A stretch of DNA of 64,000 bases from Escherichia phage vB_EcoM_AYO145A (KR014248); one strand, 5' to 3'. Positions 24,801-31,327 are shown, counted from the stretch's first letter. Notes: generated by a model not told the origin, from the letters alone. Made by a program: numbers and translations.

Positions 24801-26216
24801 ATGAGCGAATTATTTAAACATGCGCACCTTCATGCAGGTCGAACTGAAAATGGTGCTGTAAACCATACTTCATCAATGTCTGCTCTTGTAGACTTTTACA
24901 AAGCTGCTGGTTCTAGCCGTAGCAATGTAGGAATCTTACCAGACCTGTTCTACAAAGCTTTGCGTGAGGATGTTGATGTTGCAGTTCGTATTTTGCTTCA
25001 TATGCGAGATGTACGAGAAGGTATGGGTGAGCGTAAAGCTTTCCGAACTGTTTTACTTCAAGCGATTGAAGATAAAGTTTTAGAGCCTACGCAGGTTCTT
25101 CGCATTATGGATAAGATTGCAGAGCTTGGTCGTTTTGATGACTTCAAAATCTTCGTGGGTACTCGTTTCGAGACAGATGCCTTCAAACATTTAGAAGCAG
25201 CATTACTAGACCCTGCAACAGCAGGTTTGGCAGCTAAGTGGTTACCACGAGTCAAACCACGTCATAAGCAGTTTGTAAAACGTTTCTGCAAGTTTGCAAA
25301 CTTGAGTGAGAAAGAGTACCGCACACTGTTGTCTGCACTATCTGATACAGTTGAACAAAAAATCTCTGCTAATGAGTTTGGTAAGATTGACTACAGTAAG
25401 ATTCCTTCACTTGCTGCTGCACGTTACCAAAAACTCTTTAACCGTAAAGATGGAGAACGCTACAAAGCTTACATCGAGTCACTCTCAAAAGGTGAGGCCA
25501 AGATTAACGCTGGTGCTGTTTACCCATACGATGTGATTAAATCTATCAAGTATGGTAATGCAGATGTTGCTAATGAGCAGTGGAAAGCACTACCAAACTG
25601 GATGGTAGAAGGTGAAAACATCCTGTGTATGACTGATGTTTCAAGCTCAATGTCTTGGGTGAATCTTGGTTCAATCACTGCCCTTGATATTGGTGTATCC
25701 CTTGCCTTGTATGTAGCAGAACGCAATACAGGTTGTTTTAAGAATGAGTTAATGGTTTATTCAACAAACCCTCATTTCATCGAATTGAGTGGTGATTTAC
25801 GAAACCGTCATCGTCAGATAATGCGTCATGTTGAATATGGCTCAACTAACTTACAAGCAGCTTTTGACCGTATTCTTGAAATAGGCAAGAGAAACAACTT
25901 GACTCAGAAAGATATGCCAAGTAAGCTTATTATCTTCTCTGATATGGAGTTCAATCAGGTTGATGGAGCTAACGGTCGTACAAACTTTGAAGCAATTCAG
26001 AGTAAGTACAAAAAAGCTGGATATGAGATGCCACAACTGGTATTCTGGTACTTAGCAAACCGTAATGGTACTTGCGAAGTATCTGTTAAGGATAATGGTG
26101 TAGCAATGGTATCAGGGTTCTCTCCAGCCACTTTAAAAGCTCTGCTTGGTGGTGAGAAGTTTGACCCAATCAGCGTAATGCTCAAAGCAGTAATGATTGA
26201 CCGTTATATCTGGTAA
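24801..26216 (+). CDS. Ro60-like TROVE + vWA protein (Rsr-like)
   Basis: 471 aa; vWA MIDAS-like ILCMTDVSSSMSW and LIIFSDMEFNQ; central VYPYDVIKSI and C-terminal NG...GF..ATL resemble Ro60 as I recall it. Confidence 0.55.
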   Translation: MSELFKHAHLHAGRTENGAVNHTSSMSALVDFYKAAGSSRSNVGILPDLFYKALREDVDVAVRILLHMRDVREGMGERKAFRTVLLQAIEDKVLEPTQVLRIMDKIAELGRFDDFKIFVGTRFETDAFKHLEAALLDPATAGLAAKWLPRVKPRHKQFVKRFCKFANLSEKEYRTLLSALSDTVEQKISANEFGKIDYSKIPSLAAARYQKLFNRKDGERYKAYIESLSKGEAKINAGAVYPYDVIKSIKYGNADVANEQWKALPNWMVEGENILCMTDVSSSMSWVNLGSITALDIGVSLALYVAERNTGCFKNELMVYSTNPHFIELSGDLRNRHRQIMRHVEYGSTNLQAAFDRILEIGKRNNLTQKDMPSKLIIFSDMEFNQVDGANGRTNFEAIQSKYKKAGYEMPQLVFWYLANRNGTCEVSVKDNGVAMVSGFSPATLKALLGGEKFDPISVMLKAVMIDRYIW

Positions 26217-26234: not shown

Positions 26235-26263
26235 TTGACAATGTGTTTGATACCCTTTAATAT
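26235..26263 (+). promoter_or_regulatory. sigma70-like promoter (TTGACA-N17-TAATAT) inside the GGGTAT/ATACCC inverted repeat
   Basis: consensus boxes read by eye. Confidence 0.45.
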
Positions 26264-26325
26264 GTTCTACATAGAAACAAAATGAGAGCTTTTCTAAGAT
26301 ACTGAAAAATATTTTAAAAAAGTTC

Positions 26326-26355
26326 TTGACAACCACTAAAAAATAATGTTAAAGT
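26326..26355 (+). promoter_or_regulatory. promoter TTGACA-N18-TAAAGT upstream of the first tRNA
   Basis: TTGACAACCACT...AGTGGTT inverted repeat spanning the -10. Confidence 0.45.
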
Positions 26356-26381: not shown

Positions 26382-26458
26382 CTCTGTTTAGCTCAGCTTG
26401 GTAGAGCGTTCCGTTTGGGGCGGTAAGGCCGGAGGTTCAAGTCCTCCAACAGAGACCA
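26382..26458 (+). tRNA. tRNA-Pro(TGG)
   Basis: cloverleaf by eye; anticodon loop TTTGGGG; D- and T-arms close to E. coli tRNA-Pro; CCA encoded. Confidence 0.75.
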
Positions 26459-26465
26459 AATTAAT

Positions 26466-26543
26466 GTTCCAGTAGACAAAATGGTAAAGTCACCACTCTT
26501 TCAAAGTGGATATTTGAGGGTTCAAATCCCTTCTGGAACGCCA
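26466..26543 (+). tRNA. tRNA-Glu(TTC)
   Basis: acceptor GTTCCAG/CTGGAAC; anticodon loop CTTTCAA; T-loop TTCAAAT; CCA. Confidence 0.7.
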
Positions 26544-26550
26544 GTTTTGA

Positions 26551-26623
26551 CAGAAGACCAATTACAGCAAACTTAATCTTATTCATCTGACACGAAATCG
26601 GACAAAGAAGAGATTTGGTCTGG
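26551..26623 (+). ncRNA. structured spacer RNA candidate (CAGAAGACC...GGTCTGG family, copy 1)
   Basis: 5' CAGAAGACCA and 3' TGGTCTGG form the terminal helix; shared internal CAGCAA box. Confidence 0.3.
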
Positions 26624-26634
26624 TCATTAAGAAT

Positions 26635-26711
26635 TGCGGGTATAGAGAAAGGGCGTCTCACATGTCTCATTAGCATGGTATCGGCAGGTTCGACTCCTGC
26701 ACCCGCCTCCA
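26635..26711 (+). tRNA. tRNA-Met(CAT), or Ile2/fMet
   Basis: anticodon loop CTCATTA; T-arm GCAGGttcgactCCTGC; CCA. Confidence 0.55.
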
Positions 26712-26717
26712 ATTTTG

Positions 26718-26777
26718 CAGAAGACCGTATGCAGCAATAAACTACTTTTTGCGGATAAAAGAAAAAACACGGTCTGG
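26718..26777 (+). ncRNA. structured spacer RNA candidate (same family, copy 2)
   Basis: CAGAAGACCG ... CGGTCTGG; compensatory G:C where copy 1 has A:T. Confidence 0.3.
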
Positions 26778-26788
26778 CAATGTATTAA

Positions 26789-26865
26789 GGTTAGGAAGCA
26801 CATAAGGTATGTGCGGTCGCCTGTTAAGCGAATGGCACAGGGTTCGAATCCCTGACTAACCGCCA
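26789..26865 (+). tRNA. tRNA-Asn(GTT)
   Basis: anticodon loop CTGTTAA; T-arm CAGGGttcgaatCCCTG; CCA. Confidence 0.65.
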
Positions 26866-26874
26866 AATTTAAAT

Positions 26875-26962
26875 GTGTCGTTATCCCGTAGATGGTAGCG
26901 GTGGGGACTGTAAATCCCTTGTCATTGAGACTCGGTAGGTTCGACTCCTACACGGCACACCA
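26875..26962 (+). tRNA. tRNA-Tyr(GTA)
   Basis: 88 nt with long variable arm; anticodon loop CTGTAAA; CCA. Confidence 0.7.
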
Positions 26963-26968
26963 AATAAA

Positions 26969-27046
26969 GGTTATGTAGTTTAATCTGGTTAAAATACTCC
27001 CCTGTCACGGGAGATGATGAGGGTTCAAATCCCTTCGTAACCGCCA
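26969..27046 (+). tRNA. tRNA-Asp(GTC)
   Basis: anticodon stem CTCCC/GGGAG, loop CTGTCAC; CCA. Confidence 0.75.
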
Positions 27047-27133
27047 AATTATAATAAGTATTCCAAGATGATGTTTTGAGAGGGCTATTTAGCCCCTCCC
27101 TTAAAGAGTTCTTACGAGTATTCTTTAAAGGAG

Positions 27134-27210
27134 CAGAAGACCAAATTCAGCAAGTACGTATGATATTTTCAAGCCAATTTAATTTTGAAAAAATTTAAAA
27201 CTTGGTCTGG
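27134..27210 (+). ncRNA. structured spacer RNA candidate (same family, copy 3)
   Basis: CAGAAGACCAA ... TTGGTCTGG. Confidence 0.3.
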
Positions 27211-27223
27211 CTCAACAAATTTA

Positions 27224-27355
27224 CAGAAGACCGTTTACAGCAAAACTTAAACAATCTATTTCTCCGGTAAAGAAAAGGCGAAGGTTCGATTCCTTCACTC
27301 GGCAGATGTCGAGTTGGTGTAATGGTAGCACTTAAGATGATAAACAACGGTCTGG
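27224..27355 (+). ncRNA. Y-RNA-like RNA candidate (YrlA-type, permuted tRNA-like module)
   Basis: terminal helix AGACCGT/ACGGTCT; inside, T-arm GAAGGttcgattCCTTC, then ACTCGGC-agat-GTCGAGT acceptor-like hairpin, then TG and D-arm GTGTaatggtaGCAC; about 1 kb downstream of the Ro60-like gene. Confidence 0.45.
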
Positions 27356-27357
27356 TA

Positions 27358-27500
27358 ATTATCTTTGTAGATAAGTTATTAAGCTTACCTGTGAGTATGC
27401 GACCACAAAGGGTGAAAGGGTAAATTCTAGATTTAAACCCAACAAGGCACATCGCTACAGACCTTAAGCAAGTCTGGGTAGCTTATCTACAAAGATAATT
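27358..27500 (+). ncRNA. structured RNA candidate closed by a perfect 19-bp inverted repeat
   Basis: AATTATCTTTGTAGATAAG (27358-27376) is the exact reverse complement of CTTATCTACAAAGATAATT (27482-27500); internal CAGACcttaagcaaGTCTG hairpin. Confidence 0.35.
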
Positions 27501-27505
27501 TTAAT

Positions 27506-27581
27506 GGAAGTGTAGCAGAATGGTGATGCGGCAGACTTTTAATCTGACAGGCGATGGGTTCGAATCCCTCCACTTCTACCA
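27506..27581 (+). tRNA. tRNA-Lys(TTT)
   Basis: anticodon loop CTTTTAA; T-loop TTCGAAT; CCA. Confidence 0.65.
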
Positions 27582-27585
27582 ATAT

Positions 27586-27662
27586 GGTTCAGTCGCAGAT
27601 AAGGTAATGCAGGGGTCTCATAAGCCCTATGAATGTGGGTTCGATTCCCATCTGAACCTCCA
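27586..27662 (+). tRNA. tRNA-Met/Ile(CAT)
   Basis: acceptor GGTTCAG/CTGAACC; anticodon loop CTCATAA; CCA. Confidence 0.65.
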
Positions 27663-27663
27663 A

Positions 27664-27739
27664 GCTGGTATAGTTAAGAAGGTTATAACACTCCCCTGAT
27701 AAGGGAACATCGGTGGTTCGATTCCACCTACCAGTACCA
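27664..27739 (+). tRNA. tRNA-Ile(GAT)
   Basis: D-stem GTTA/TAAC; anticodon loop CTGATAA; T-arm GGTGGttcgattCCACC; CCA. Confidence 0.65.
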
Positions 27740-27754
27740 ATTTCAATAAAGTTG

Positions 27755-27783
27755 TTGACATTGAGATGTGACTACTTTATAGT
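27755..27783 (+). promoter_or_regulatory. sigma70-like promoter (TTGACA-N17-TATAGT)
   Basis: internal promoter inside the tRNA island. Confidence 0.5.
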
Positions 27784-27987
27784 AACCTTAGTTTTCGTTG
27801 CGTAGCGTCTATTTTGCAAATTTAAAATAAATGCAAACGACAATGTTTTTCTGGCAGTAGCTTGATAGGCTAAACACCAGTGAGGTCTTCCAATCCCTCA
27901 TCAAAGAATTTGGCGTACTCGCCCACGGTATGATTAATAAGGTGGGCATCTTTAAGGGCTTTCTAAGAGAGTCTTTAAAGATAATTA

Positions 27988-28069
27988 CGGGGCGTATCTC
28001 AGCGGTCTTCTAAACCGCCGTTAACCGAGTAAGTGGAGTATGCGGGTTCGAGTCCTGCCGCCTCGACCA
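27988..28069 (+). tRNA. tRNA-like, possibly Arg(TCT); non-canonical D region
   Basis: good acceptor (CGGGGCG/CGCCTCG), T-arm and CCA; GCGGTcttctaaACCGC fits an anticodon arm but leaves no room for a normal D-arm. Confidence 0.35.
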
Positions 28070-28211
28070 AATAGTTAGCAGATTACTTAGACGGTCTTAG
28101 CGGGTCTTCCTGTAGGGAGGTGGTCTGTATCTCATGTTTTCCAGAACATGTAAATAATCTGAGAAGGGGCTTTACAGTGTTGAGATAATACGGTAAGCTT
28201 CGAATTATAGT

Positions 28212-28294
28212 GTGGGACGATGTTAAGACTCTAAGGCATGAGCAACGGCTTCCAACACCGTTTCAAAGGGGTTCAACTCCTCCGTCCCATGCCA
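28212..28294 (+). tRNA. tRNA-like, possibly Trp(CCA); enlarged D region or anticodon loop
   Basis: acceptor GTGGGAC/GTCCCAT, T-loop TTCAACT, CCA; AACGG-cttccaaca-CCGTT contains CCA in a 7- or 9-nt loop. Confidence 0.35.
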
Positions 28295-28307
28295 AAGTCT
28301 TATTAGG

Positions 28308-28395
28308 GGTAGGTAGCGGCTAATGGTAGCCAAACTGTCTTGAAAACAGTTGCCACTGTAGAGATACGGTGAGGGTTCGACTCCTTTACTTACCG
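28308..28395 (+). tRNA. tRNA-Ser(TGA)
   Basis: class II: anticodon stem ACTGT/ACAGT, loop CTTGAAA, long variable arm; 3' CCA not encoded (GCCT). Confidence 0.65.
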
Positions 28396-28652
28396 CCTAA
28401 TAAGATTTAAAGCCAAGCTTCATTCGGATGTTGCTTTGGTATACCGCGTGTATTGTTGTACGCACTGATAAAGCACCTAGTAGGTGTCACGGAGAAGAGA
28501 TAATATCAAGCTCTCCAAAGGTTCTAGTCACCGGATTAAACAAGACTATGCAAAGACCTTTTTAGGTCTTTTTAGAGGGCTTCTAAGGTTATTACAGCTT
28601 GTTGTGGAACCTTGTTGCTTAGGTTCTTAGAAGTTCTCTAAAAAGACTTAAT

Positions 28653-28730
28653 GGGAGATTGACGGTAATTGGTAAACCTATCTCGCTTAGAACGAGATGT
28701 TTGAGGGTTCGAATCCCTTGTCTCCTACCA
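28653..28730 (+). tRNA. tRNA with anticodon TAG (Leu by anticodon; class-I-like shape)
   Basis: anticodon stem TCTCG/CGAGA, loop CTTAGAA; T-loop TTCGAAT; CCA; short variable loop. Confidence 0.5.
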
Positions 28731-28737
28731 AATTAAT

Positions 28738-28813
28738 GCAGGTGTAGCAAAATGGTTATGCGGCTGACTCTTAATCAGTAAGACGATGGGTTCAATTCCC
28801 TCCACCTGTACCA
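28738..28813 (+). tRNA. tRNA-Lys(CTT), tentative
   Basis: acceptor GCAGGTG/CACCTGT; anticodon loop CTCTTAA; weak T-stem; CCA. Confidence 0.5.
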
Positions 28814-28819
28814 AACAAT

Positions 28820-28895
28820 GGGGATGTAGTTTACATGGTTAAAACATAAGTTTTGCAAACTTAAGTACAGGGTTCAATTCCCTGCTTCTCCACCA
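28820..28895 (+). tRNA. tRNA-Ala(TGC)
   Basis: anticodon stem TAAGT/ACTTA, loop TTTGCAA; T-arm CAGGGttcaattCCCTG; CCA. Confidence 0.65.
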
Positions 28896-28901
28896 ATTAG
28901 T

Positions 28902-28976
28902 GCATCCATAGTTTAAACGGGAAAATTACAGTCTTCCAAACTGAGGTTGAGGGTTCGATTCCCTCTGGATGCTCCA
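28902..28976 (+). tRNA. tRNA-Gly(TCC)
   Basis: acceptor GCATCCA/TGGATGC; anticodon loop CTTCCAA; CCA. Confidence 0.7.
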
Positions 28977-28982
28977 AACAAT

Positions 28983-29059
28983 GCTGCTTTCGTATAATTG
29001 GCTATTACACATCCCTTGTAAGGATGGAAATGCAGGTTCGAGTCCTGTGAGCAGCACCA
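28983..29059 (+). tRNA. tRNA-Thr(TGT)
   Basis: anticodon stem CATCC/GGATG, loop CTTGTAA; CCA. Confidence 0.7.
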
Positions 29060-29062
29060 ATT

Positions 29063-29150
29063 CAGAGGTCAAGTGAAAGACCGCTTTGAGTCAACTGAAG
29101 ACCGTAACAAATTCCACGGAGTTGAGTTAGCGGCACAACTCCAGACCTCT
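29063..29150 (+). ncRNA. structured spacer element
   Basis: outer helix AGAGGTC/GACCTCT enclosing GGAGTTGagttagcggcaCAACTCC hairpin and a GAAGACCG box. Confidence 0.25.
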
Positions 29151-29155
29151 TTCAT

Positions 29156-29230
29156 ACTCGCTTAGTTTATATGGTAAAACATCACCCTTACAAGATGAAG
29201 AAAAAGGTTCAAGCCCTTTAGTGAGTACCA
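29156..29230 (+). tRNA. tRNA-Val(TAC)
   Basis: D-stem GTTT/AAAC; anticodon loop CTTACAA; CCA. Confidence 0.65.
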
Positions 29231-29231
29231 T

Positions 29232-29309
29232 GTTCCAGTATCCCAATTGGCAGAGGATGCAAGCTCAAACCTTGTATTAGTGACGGTTCGAATCCGTCTT
29301 GGAACACCA
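29232..29309 (+). tRNA. tRNA with anticodon CAA (Leu by anticodon)
   Basis: anticodon stem GCAAG/CTTGT, loop CTCAAAC; T-arm GACGGttcgaatCCGTC; CCA. Confidence 0.55.
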
Positions 29310-29314
29310 ATTTT

Positions 29315-29390
29315 GCAGGATTAGTTCAAATGGAAAGAGCAACAGTCTACGAAGCTGTTAATAGGGGTTCGAATCCCTTATCCTGCGCCA
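29315..29390 (+). tRNA. tRNA-Arg(ACG)
   Basis: acceptor GCAGGAT/ATCCTGC; anticodon loop CTACGAA; CCA. Confidence 0.7.
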
Positions 29391-29409
29391 ATTTAAAGAG
29401 GCTATTTAG

Positions 29410-29967
29410 ATGAGATATTTGAAGTATGCTTCATGGATTTTCTTAGCTTTGTTAGAGCCATTTGCAGCAATCTTAGCAGTTATCTTAGCACCTTTCGTAG
29501 TTCCATTCTACAGTGAGAAGAAAGGCCACTTACCTTTCGGATTTAGATGGATGGAGACCTATGACAACCCGATTGATGGTGATGAAGGCCACGTTAAAAG
29601 ATGGGCTAAGATTAGAAAGATTGGTAAGCTCGGTGTTTATATGCAGAGAGTTGGATGGCTCTGGAGAAACAAAGCTTATAACTTCTCTTACCATGTATTA
29701 GGAAGAGATGTAAAAGATGTTACTAAGTGGAAAGGTAATATCAACGTAAGTTCTAACCCTGAAGATAATCAGACAGGTTATCTCCTAATGTGGAACAGTA
29801 ATGCTTGGGGATTATTTGCTTTTATCCCATCTATTAAAGTCTTTGGTAAACAATTCTACTGGAGAATTTATGTTGGGTGGAAACTAAAAAGTGTTGTCCC
29901 AGAAGAAAGAGCATTCTCAAGGGAAAGAGTTATGTTGGCATTCTTTATTCATCCACTAAGAAAATAA
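29410..29967 (+). CDS. hypothetical membrane protein embedded in the tRNA island
   Basis: 185-aa ORF with N-terminal hydrophobic segment; flanked by tRNAs. Confidence 0.5.
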   Translation: MRYLKYASWIFLALLEPFAAILAVILAPFVVPFYSEKKGHLPFGFRWMETYDNPIDGDEGHVKRWAKIRKIGKLGVYMQRVGWLWRNKAYNFSYHVLGRDVKDVTKWKGNINVSSNPEDNQTGYLLMWNSNAWGLFAFIPSIKVFGKQFYWRIYVGWKLKSVVPEERAFSRERVMLAFFIHPLRK

Positions 29968-29975
29968 AGATTTAA

Positions 29976-30051
29976 AGGGGATTAGTTTACAAGGTTAAAA
30001 CCTCGGTCTTTGAAATCGAAGAAGTTGGTTCAATTCCAACATCCCCCGCCA
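29976..30051 (+). tRNA. tRNA-Gln(TTG)
   Basis: anticodon stem TCGGT/ATCGA, loop CTTTGAA; T-arm GTTGGttcaattCCAAC; CCA. Confidence 0.65.
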
Positions 30052-30053
30052 AT

Positions 30054-30132
30054 GCTCCATTACTCCAATTGGCAGAGAGGCCAGACTTAAAATCTGTGTT
30101 ATGTATCGGTTCGAATCCGATATGGAGTACCA
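30054..30132 (+). tRNA. tRNA with anticodon TAA (Leu by anticodon)
   Basis: anticodon loop CTTAAAA; T-arm ATCGGttcgaatCCGAT; CCA; 7-nt variable loop. Confidence 0.55.
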
Positions 30133-30137
30133 AATTT

Positions 30138-30213
30138 AGCGGTATAGCATAACTGGCAATGCAACAGTCTCTGAAGCTGTCCTATTAAGGTTCAAATCCT
30201 TATGCCGCTGCCA
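30138..30213 (+). tRNA. tRNA-Gln(CTG)
   Basis: anticodon loop CTCTGAA; T-arm TAAGGttcaaatCCTTA; CCA. Confidence 0.65.
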
Positions 30214-30244
30214 CTTCTAAGGGTTCTTACGAGAGTCCTTAAAT

Positions 30245-30320
30245 GTGGCCTTATCATAAAAGGTAATGACCCATGCTGTGAACATGGTCTATACGGGTTC
30301 AAATCCCGTAGGTCACCCCA
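30245..30320 (+). tRNA. tRNA-His(GTG)
   Basis: anticodon stem CCATG/CATGG, loop CTGTGAA; CCA. Confidence 0.7.
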
Positions 30321-30326
30321 ATTTAT

Positions 30327-30402
30327 AGTCCAAGTAGCTTATATGGTTAAAGCGCGTGTCTGAAAAACATGAGAAGAGGGTTCAAATCCCACTGGACTAC
30401 CA
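30327..30402 (+). tRNA. tRNA-Phe(GAA)
   Basis: D-stem GCTT/AAGC; anticodon loop CTGAAAA; T-loop TTCAAAT; CCA. Confidence 0.65.
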
Positions 30403-30418
30403 ATTTCAAAGGTGCTTA

Positions 30419-31153
30419 ATGAAAGAGATGACAGAACAAGGTAAGGAGATTTTTAATCTCTTAAAAACCGGTAAAGGGTTCTCTAACCCGCTTATTACTG
30501 GTGCAGCAGTTCTCGGTGGAACCGTAGCTGCTTCTACATCACTTGTAAGCTCTATTAGTTCTGTAACAGACCCTACAATGAAGGAGAAACTTGTTGCTGC
30601 TGGACTTACAACAGTCCTTTTAAACAGCTTTACAACAAGCCTTACAAGCACTACAGCAACTACTAAGACCCTAACAGACTACGGTCAAAAGTCTATTGAT
30701 GAGTTTTCATCACGTATGCAGGTAGCAAAGGGATACTCCAATGTTATGGGTGCAGTAGGAGAACAAGTTGGTTGTACACCATTCAGTGGTATTATGGGTG
30801 TTGCTACAGAGTATGGTCAAAAAGCTATTGACACAATTAACAGTGCACTAGACGGTGTTAATGATGTATTAAGTGACTTACAAGATGCTATTGATAAAGG
30901 TCTTGATACTGTTTCTGATTTAGCTAACCAAGCTGTTAGTAAGATTAATGAAGGTATCTCAAAGATTACAGCTTATGCAGATGAAGTTGTGCAGATGATT
31001 GAAGAAGAAGCTGCCCTTATTGCAGAGTACCTTAAAACAAATATCAATGGGTTCTTAGCAGGTATCTTACCAGACTGGTTTGATGATGCTTGTAAAACTG
31101 GTGTGATTGATACTATTGCAACACCAGAAATGAAGAACGCATTACAGAAATAA
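30419..31153 (+). CDS. hypothetical Ser/Thr/Ala-rich protein
   Basis: the ORF-track start at 30356 lies inside tRNA-Phe; first ATG after the tRNA is 30419; low-complexity N-terminal half. Confidence 0.5.
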   Translation: MKEMTEQGKEIFNLLKTGKGFSNPLITGAAVLGGTVAASTSLVSSISSVTDPTMKEKLVAAGLTTVLLNSFTTSLTSTTATTKTLTDYGQKSIDEFSSRMQVAKGYSNVMGAVGEQVGCTPFSGIMGVATEYGQKAIDTINSALDGVNDVLSDLQDAIDKGLDTVSDLANQAVSKINEGISKITAYADEVVQMIEEEAALIAEYLKTNINGFLAGILPDWFDDACKTGVIDTIATPEMKNALQK

Positions 31154-31154
31154 T

Positions 31155-31247
31155 GGAAGATTAACCCTAAAAGGTAAGGGAGCAGTTTGCTAAACTGCCA
31201 GTAGCTGAGAAATCGGTGTACCAGTTCAAGTCTGGTATCTTCCTCCA
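31155..31247 (+). tRNA. tRNA-Ser(GCT)
   Basis: class II, 93 nt: acceptor GGAAGAT/ATCTTCC, anticodon stem GCAGT/ACTGC, loop TTGCTAA, long variable arm; CCA. Confidence 0.65.
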
Positions 31248-31251
31248 ATTT

Positions 31252-31327
31252 GAATCCGTGACAGAAATGGCTATGTGCCTGTCTGCAAAACAGGTTTATA
31301 AGGGTTCGAGTCCCTTCGGATTCTCCA
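31252..31327 (+). tRNA. tRNA-Cys(GCA)
   Basis: acceptor GAATCCG/CGGATTC; anticodon stem CCTGT/ACAGG, loop CTGCAAA; CCA. Confidence 0.7.

Follow-up and report, generated by a model that had tools for sequence, protein, structure and literature searches.

Bacterial Y RNAs have been defined as RNAs encoded on the same strand as a Ro60 orthologue and within about 4 kb of it, and the same study described the Ro60-binding motifs GNCGAAN0-1G and GGUCCGA (the latter in a bulged helix) and the layout of YrlA, with a T arm, an acceptor-like hairpin and a D arm (Chen et al. 2014, PMC4201824). Known members are YrlA and YrlB in Salmonella, Yrn1 and Yrn2 in Deinococcus, and Yrl1 and Yrl2 in Thermus phage phiLo, whose Ro60 binds these two phage-encoded RNAs and complexes with host PNPase (PMC12135203). 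Phage Ro60 and Y-like RNAs were also proposed in a Listeria phage study, where the best HHpred match of the protein was Deinococcus Rsr (PMC12282133). A phage Ro60 served by several phage-encoded Y-like RNAs is already a known kind of system. Stable RNAs of about 120-140 nt, rnaC and rnaD (species 1 and 2), also lie among the tRNA genes of phage T4 according to the annotation of its record, and are cut out of the tRNA precursor. RNase III stems, in which sequences flanking an RNA in a polycistronic precursor form about 20 bp of near-perfect double-stranded RNA, occur in rRNA operons and in the early mRNAs of phage T7.

The locus described here lies in Escherichia phage vB_EcoM_AYO145A (KR014248), of which a stretch of 64,000 nt (the window) was analysed; coordinates count from its first base. 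This is a Felix O1-like phage (Felixounavirus, Ounavirinae). Members of the group count among those most often employed for typing and biocontrol of Salmonella and E. coli, and our literature search found no paper tying them to Ro60 or Y RNAs. The window carries 25 tRNA genes on the + strand (26382-31327). A gap of about 460 nt in this Felix O1-like tRNA array, previously left unannotated or labelled 'hypothetical protein', holds a conserved pseudoknotted RNA.

The tRNA array is headed by a gene (24801-26216, + strand) for a 471-aa protein with Pfam DUF2828 and DUF7788/VWA domains, a member of PHROG 850 ('RNA-binding protein'). An AlphaFold model built from 32 homologues reached a pLDDT of 85.8 and a pTM of 0.86, and the 12 best Foldseek matches to it in the PDB were all Ro60/TROVE structures (E 1e-8 to 1e-6, TM 0.46-0.65), Xenopus Ro60, Deinococcus Ro60 and Thermus phage phiLo Ro60 among them. 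The protein is predicted to fold like Ro60, as a helical-repeat ring with a VWA domain; the similarity is one of predicted fold only, with 13-16% identity and a Pfam assignment to DUF2828, not TROVE. Its homologues were found in 691 phage records, from Vibrio, Listeria, Staphylococcus, Mycobacterium and other phages. DUF2828 homologues are present in Listeria phages related to that of PMC12282133, and those of mycobacteriophages are annotated as 'Ro-like RNA binding protein'. In Ounavirinae-like contigs (L032, L033 and L114-L117) a DUF5681 gene always precedes the DUF2828 gene and the tRNA array follows.

Between the tRNAs we found four Y-like modules on the + strand (26550-26624, 26717-26778, 27133-27211 and 27223-27356), which share the arrangement GCAGAAG-stem-N3-4-CAGCAA...stem-UGG. 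Their stems covary across the window and its relatives (AGACC/GGUCU, GUAUC/GAUAC, GUGUC/GACAC), and a 2-bp lower stem, G-C or A-U, covaries as well around an AGA/G internal loop. The fourth module (27223-27356) is a YrlA-like tRNA mimic by its sequence and minimum free energy (MFE) fold, in which T arm, acceptor-like hairpin and D arm stand in the permuted tRNA-like order of YrlA; it has a partial Rfam tRNA match of 22 bits. None of the four modules reaches a match with the Rfam YrlA model. In mycobacteriophage Gabriela (L245 5440-5710), three modules with the same CAGCAA core and signature come right after the Ro-like gene, and the interior of the first, CAGCAACUAACUGUUUGCGGAUAACAAGAAAA, is strikingly like that of the window's second module, CAGCAAUAAACUACUUUUUGCGGAUAAAAGAAAA (26717-26778), despite the distant hosts. 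Two more conserved hairpins, GAGAGGGCUAUUUAGCCCCUCCC and then UUAAAGAGUUCUUACGAGUAUUCUUUAAAGG, lie in 27060-27132 between tRNA-Asp and the third Y-like module, and are also kept in Mooglevirus, Suspvirus and L032.

Directly after the fourth module, which ends at 27356, and before tRNA-Lys(UUU) (27506-27581, + strand), the initial annotation had noticed a perfect 19-bp inverted repeat, and this placement is as it described. The repeat is indeed perfect over 19 bp and its second arm is 27482-27500. The first arm had been put at 27358-27376, which fails a complementarity check; it starts one base further left, at 27357-27375 (AATTATCTTTGTAGATAAG), so that 106 nt are enclosed. The repeat had been judged unlikely to arise by chance, and we agree: among the perfect inverted repeats of the 64-kb window whose loop is no more than 200 nt, none is longer, and the longest in any of 200 first-order Markov simulations of the window reached 15 bp. 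The arm sequence has only two sites in the window, even when up to three mismatches are allowed (expected matches, 0.06).

When G.U pairs are included, the arms extend to a helix of 23 bp (P1), with 27357-27379 as its 5' strand and 27478-27500 as its 3' strand; the first 19 nt of the former and the last 19 nt of the latter are the perfect arms. The 19-bp repeat is the outer part of the closing helix of a 144-nt non-coding RNA domain (27357-27500) on the + strand of the tRNA operon. MFE folding, covariance and pair counts give this domain the helix P1, three hairpins (P2, P3 and P4) and a pseudoknot between the P4 loop (L4) and the strand J1/2. Hairpin P2 (27390-27407) has the stem UGUG/CACA and a loop that starts with GAGU; P3 (27418-27440) has an outer stem GGGU/ACCC and an apical UUCUAGA; and P4 (27458-27476) has a 9-nt loop, CUUAAGCAA (27463-27471). 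The stem of P4 is the CAGAC...GTCTG hairpin already seen inside the repeat, located at 27458-27462 and 27472-27476, and P4 ends one base short of the 3' strand of P1. Fold prediction, proposed earlier as a check, gave -48.3 kcal/mol for 27350-27505 (z = -5.2), and none of 200 shuffles was equally stable. In the MFE fold of 27218-27505, the YrlA-like cloverleaf and the 144-nt domain are two independent units of one structure, the closing stem of the former abutting P1 with no spacer.

Absence of the repeat from close relatives had been named as evidence against a structured element. A homologue search found it instead in about 246 enterobacterial (Ounavirinae) phage records, close to the 248 records in which the upstream DUF2828 gene is at least 80% identical. 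The region 27000-27800 is 99.5% identical to Escherichia phage EF202P1, and 237 phage records match it over most of its length. The homologues fall into seven sequence types of nearly equal length and one architecture, a long closing stem with the P4 hairpin, which lies 1-2 nt before the P1 3' strand in each type. Type A comprises this window and most Felixounavirus; type B, Mooglevirus, Suspvirus and some Felixounavirus such as Seyj1-1; and type C, L032 and L116, where the upstream protein is 63% identical. Types D, E, F and G are represented by L033, L117, L115 and L114 respectively, with an upstream protein 52-56% identical. Types C to G were reached through homologues of the upstream protein in assembled (metagenomic) contigs. 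A covariance model built on types A and C (R1) finds type B with about 50 bits (E about 1e-10) and type D with E = 0.015; types E to G were detected by a scan for the P4 hairpin plus closing stem. Apart from type D, every type has a closing stem that is a simple helix of 17-25 bp.

Neither model R1 nor the hairpin-plus-closing-stem scan found a member at 80 more distant DUF2828 loci, so the element is lineage-specific and not an obligate partner of the protein family. Viral contigs scanned with the pattern GAGTANGC...CCTTAAGCAAG gave seven new loci, all of them stemless chance matches, and a metagenome scan with TTAAGCAAG...GCAGAANGG gave only chance matches among the matches listed; model R1 recognised no member in the 80 loci of that listing.

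Some GenBank records place a CDS 'hypothetical protein' over this region, and the minus strand of the window carries an 85-aa ORF (27195-27452), so a small protein-coding gene was considered. In close type A variants (L006, L007 and L021), indels of 1-3 nt remove or shorten the ORF; no type B or type C sequence has it, and it crosses the YrlA-like RNA in antisense. We regard a coding origin as wholly implausible.

The helices are maintained by compensatory changes in the seven types, which bears out the earlier description of a structured element. To that description, which offered a second Ro60 ligand, an RNase III substrate or a processing scaffold as candidate roles, the present analysis adds the pseudoknot, the two exchangeable alleles A and B, and the constant place before tRNA-Lys(UUU). 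Since MAFFT over all types misaligned the interiors, counts for P1, P4 and the pseudoknot were made by register and per type. Between types A, B and C, 13 of the 23 positions of P1 show compensatory double changes, and 472 of 483 cells are paired. In the alignment of types A and C (A3), 99.3% of cells are paired and eight pairs have changed on both sides; shuffles of this alignment averaged 2.3 double-change pairs, with 0 of 500 as high as eight, and slid controls were only 36-43% paired. Type B taken alone is 98% paired and has five double-change pairs, of which the 7-bp outer stem of P3 holds three. Comparison of type A with type C gives one compensatory pair in P3, and U-A to G-C and U-A to G.U changes in P2. 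The GAGU at the start of the P2 loop is kept across types A to D; in type B, P2 is ambiguous between two possible pairings, CAU/AUG and UCG/CGA. The stem of P4 occurs in six versions (CAGAC/GUCUG, CAGUC/GACUG, CAAACC/GGUUUG, UGUUC/GAACG, AGAGAC/GUCUCU and AAAGUC/GACUUU), and while it covaries across types its loop stays constant as CYUWWGYAA. That 27357-27500 is a real, conserved and previously unannotated structured RNA is well supported.

The same pair counts bear on whether the repeat acts as DNA, be it as a site for protein binding or recombination, as a cruciform of the kind found at origins, or as a miniature mobile element with terminal inverted repeats. The perfect 19 bp of the repeat are what such a palindrome would offer. 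There is also an exchange to account for: in Felixounavirus genomes of type B the flanks are 95-99% identical to those of type A phages, so that A and B behave as interchangeable alleles, and the interior has been swapped with a crossover within the outer part of P1. Wobble pairs are nevertheless biased to one strand, with 51 G.U cells against three A.C cells in P1 and all wobble pairs of P2 to P4 consistent with the + strand, which favours an RNA read in the direction of the tRNAs over a DNA cruciform. The interior hairpins and the pseudoknot covary too. Finally, the window has a single copy, E. coli genomes and plasmids have none, and no target-site duplication flanks it; on these last grounds a mobile element or host origin was rejected. 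A role for the palindrome at the DNA level seems to us very improbable.

The nine bases of the P4 loop are nearly invariant, and they are complementary to a strand that begins 0-4 nt after the 5' strand of P1, with runs of 5-7 Watson-Crick pairs in six of the seven types. In type A, as in the window, loop bases UAAGC (27465-27469) face J1/2 bases GCUUA (27383-27387). The corresponding strands are UUAGC and GCUAA in types B and G, UAAGCAA and UUGCUUA in type C, AAGCAA and UUGCUU in type D, and UAGUAA and UUACUA in type E; type F gives no run of five or more between loop and J1/2. Two positions covary across types. When all loops were set against all J1/2 strands, each cognate pairing was the best or tied for best, and shuffle probabilities were 0.006-0.08 in the six types with a run of at least five. 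The evidence is good, from few independent lineages, and L4 and J1/2 appear by their sequences to form a pseudoknot that locks the junction. A second tertiary contact, between L2 and J3/4 (GCGA/UCGC in type A, GCGG/CCGC in type C and GAGU/ACUC in types B and D), is only suggestive.

Upstream of the first tRNA there are two sigma70-like promoter matches (26235 and 26326, spanning 26235-26355, + strand). The next promoter match is at 27755, past tRNA-Ile, and a consensus scan gave no + strand terminator match in between, so the element would be co-transcribed with the first nine tRNAs. The upstream neighbour of the element differs with type, being a YrlA-like RNA, a short Y-like module or tRNA-Ala. 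Downstream, tRNA-Lys(UUU) follows directly in all seven types, 0-17 nt away.

This fixed spot before tRNA-Lys(UUU), the only invariant neighbourhood in the seven types, is a point in favour of a purely cis-acting processing or insulating device. P1 would then be a stem for RNase III or another nuclease that parts the Y-like RNAs from tRNA-Lys(UUU), or would control RNase P maturation of that tRNA, or both, and the excised RNA would have no function of its own. RNase III stems of similar flanking kind are found in rRNA operons. Like those stems and the ones of T7 early mRNAs, P1 is a duplex of at least 20 bp (23 bp, 19 of them perfect) that is formed by sequences flanking the domain inside a polycistronic tRNA precursor, and in type C it reaches the first base of tRNA-Lys. 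Unlike them, the element has an interior with conserved loops of its own and a pseudoknot, and its cleavage is putative. Processing in cis leaves unexplained the near-invariant 9-nt loop of P4, the covarying pseudoknot and the GAGU kept in types A to D. Elsewhere in the array, spacers are 1-10 nt long and contain nothing comparable. We consider a purely cis-acting role unlikely, if the most serious competitor.

The linkage to tRNA-Lys(UUU) also fits a stand-alone non-coding RNA unrelated to the Ro60-like protein, either a decoy or regulator tied to that tRNA, which host anticodon nucleases often attack, or an RNA that binds a ligand or is catalytic. The complexity of the fold, in which a pseudoknot locks a junction of several helices and loops are conserved, would suit such a function, and the element is absent from most other DUF2828-bearing phages. 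In the window, moreover, P4 (CAGAC-CUUAAGCAA-GUCUG) resembles the anticodon stem-loop of tRNA-Lys, CAGA-CUUUUAA-UCUG (27532-27546). This likeness may be coincidence, because in the other types the stem of P4 does not follow that of the anticodon arm. The pseudoknot is also predicted to occupy the P4 loop. Any target is putative. Rfam searches with 4227 families (at the gathering threshold and at E <= 10; 64 kb, 5.2 kb, 311 nt and the type B locus) gave no match to the element, and no riboswitch or ribozyme appeared even at E <= 10 in the 311-nt search. A function of this kind, independent of the Ro60-like protein, strikes us as rather doubtful.

We tentatively prefer a third reading, which we rate at somewhat below an even chance: the domain is a stable non-coding RNA of the Ro60-like protein and Y-RNA-like system, an extra RNA partner in the role of ligand or adaptor. 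Position speaks for it, since the element lies on the same strand as, and about 1.1-1.2 kb from, the Ro60-like gene (1.1 kb downstream of 24801-26216), well inside the 4 kb by which bacterial Y RNAs are defined; the comparison depends on the modelled likeness of that protein to Ro60. So does form, since a long stem joining the 5' and 3' ends is a hallmark of Y RNAs and the element has such a stem in P1, with 13 of 23 positions covarying. As in the Y RNAs of Salmonella, Deinococcus and phiLo, the end-paired stem surrounds a structured 'loop' domain and the locus has several different RNAs, here with a YrlA-like mimic adjoining the element. The Ro-like annotation of the mycobacteriophage homologues, the modules that follow the Ro-like gene of Gabriela and the two Y-like RNAs bound by phiLo Ro60 point the same way.

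The type D homologue in L033 gives a further link to the Y-like modules, in that its closing stem carries the module signature GCAAAGAAUC-UUU-CAGCA...GAUUCCCUGCAAG. Apart from operon and strand, what the window's own element shares with its Y-like modules is the P4 loop, where UUA-AGCAA is like the module core stem-UAA-CAGCAA. Where the modules have the conserved C of CAGCAA, P4 has A or U, and this difference (xAGCAA against CAGCAA) counts against the preferred reading. Types A to C and E to G also differ from the modules in having neither the AGAAG internal loop nor the UGG 3' signature; only type D has a module signature of the AAAGAAUC type.

Outside type D, P1 likewise contains none of the published Ro60-binding motifs and no bulged helix, and their absence from the window's element, along with that of the module signature, tells against an Ro60 partner. 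The tRNA-like domain of YrlA (Rfam RF02553) was not found in 27357-27500 at E <= 10 in the 5.2-kb and 311-nt searches; the tRNA-like domain of the locus belongs to the neighbouring RNA, 27223-27356. With both binding motif and tRNA-like domain missing, the element is not filed under YrlA. It further differs from Y RNAs in having no T or D arm, in a junction locked by a pseudoknot and in a DUF2828 partner whose binding is putative. Three more points weigh against an RNA partner of the Ro60-like protein: the element is lineage-specific; tRNA-Lys(UUU) is all that stays beside it in every type, unlike the Ro60-like gene or the Y-like modules; and a perfect 23-bp duplex should suit host RNase III, in keeping with a mere processing role. 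By analogy, the element would still work most like a Y RNA-type partner.

Transcription and processing of the element, and any binding by the Ro60-like protein, are inferred. The domain would be read on the + strand within the first transcription unit of the tRNA array. P1 would join its two ends and enclose the lineage-variable hairpins P2 and P3, and the near-invariant loop of P4 would pair with the strand immediately 3' of the first strand of P1, in a pseudoknot that locks the junction. In cutting at the 5' end of tRNA-Lys(UUU), which lies 5 nt downstream, RNase P would set the 3' end of the domain; on its 5' side the domain abuts the closing stem of the YrlA-like tRNA mimic. The RNA may then serve as a partner alone, or as a composite RNA joined to the adjoining YrlA-like RNA.

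If the RNA does partner the Ro60-like protein, it would extend the Y RNA repertoire by a new architecture, and offers a genetically tractable E. coli and Salmonella phage system in which the roles of Ro60-Y RNA particles during infection could be asked about, such as RNA quality control, hijacking of PNPase or the countering of tRNA-directed defences. A bolder proposal, to which we give little credence, is that the element founds a new class of pseudoknotted RNA with an activity of its own, either as an effector or adaptor RNA of the Ro60-like protein or as a device that controls or protects tRNA-Lys(UUU). In both cases a multi-RNA, Ro60-like ribonucleoprotein system would sit inside the tRNA operon of Felix O1-like phages, and an RNA acting on tRNA-Lys(UUU) would bear on the conflict between phage and host over tRNAs.

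Several other identities were tried and rejected. An intrinsic terminator does not fit, there being no + strand terminator-like site in 26382-27739; P1 is A+U-rich and a tRNA gene follows. A hammerhead-like core, CUGUGAG...GAAA, noticed by inspection in type A, is without the essential A6 and has no counterpart in type B. A repeat resembling a1/a2 of a retron msr/msd is present, but the annotated relative has no reverse transcriptase close by.

The element is a positional analogue of T4 rnaC and rnaD, not their homologue. Model R1, run with filters off, gave no match to them (L246 1909-2172), and the folds differ: rnaC ends in a tRNA-like T arm, unlike the element, and the T4 stretch examined has no adjoining Ro60-like gene. 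T4 species 1 RNA (rnaC, L246 1909-2047), with its paired ends and its 3' tRNA-like T arm CCGGGUUCGAAUCCCGG, is nearer to the YrlA-like layout than the element is.

Further along the array, 28562-28651 forms a second long hairpin (26-nt arms, 88% complementary, with a 38-nt loop) that ends 2 nt before tRNA-Leu(UAG); its Rfam scores are all weak and of the microRNA-precursor kind, and it may likewise be a structured spacer set immediately before a tRNA. The promoter match at 27755-27783 is a strong one (TTGACA-17-TATAGT) and is followed by about 200 nt with no called gene. Weak tmRNA-like Rfam matches fall in 27740-27990, the best of them, at 29 bits, under threshold. At 27988-28066 there is a tRNA-like sequence (Rfam, 31.7 bits) that ARAGORN does not call and where relatives annotate tRNA-Arg(UCU).
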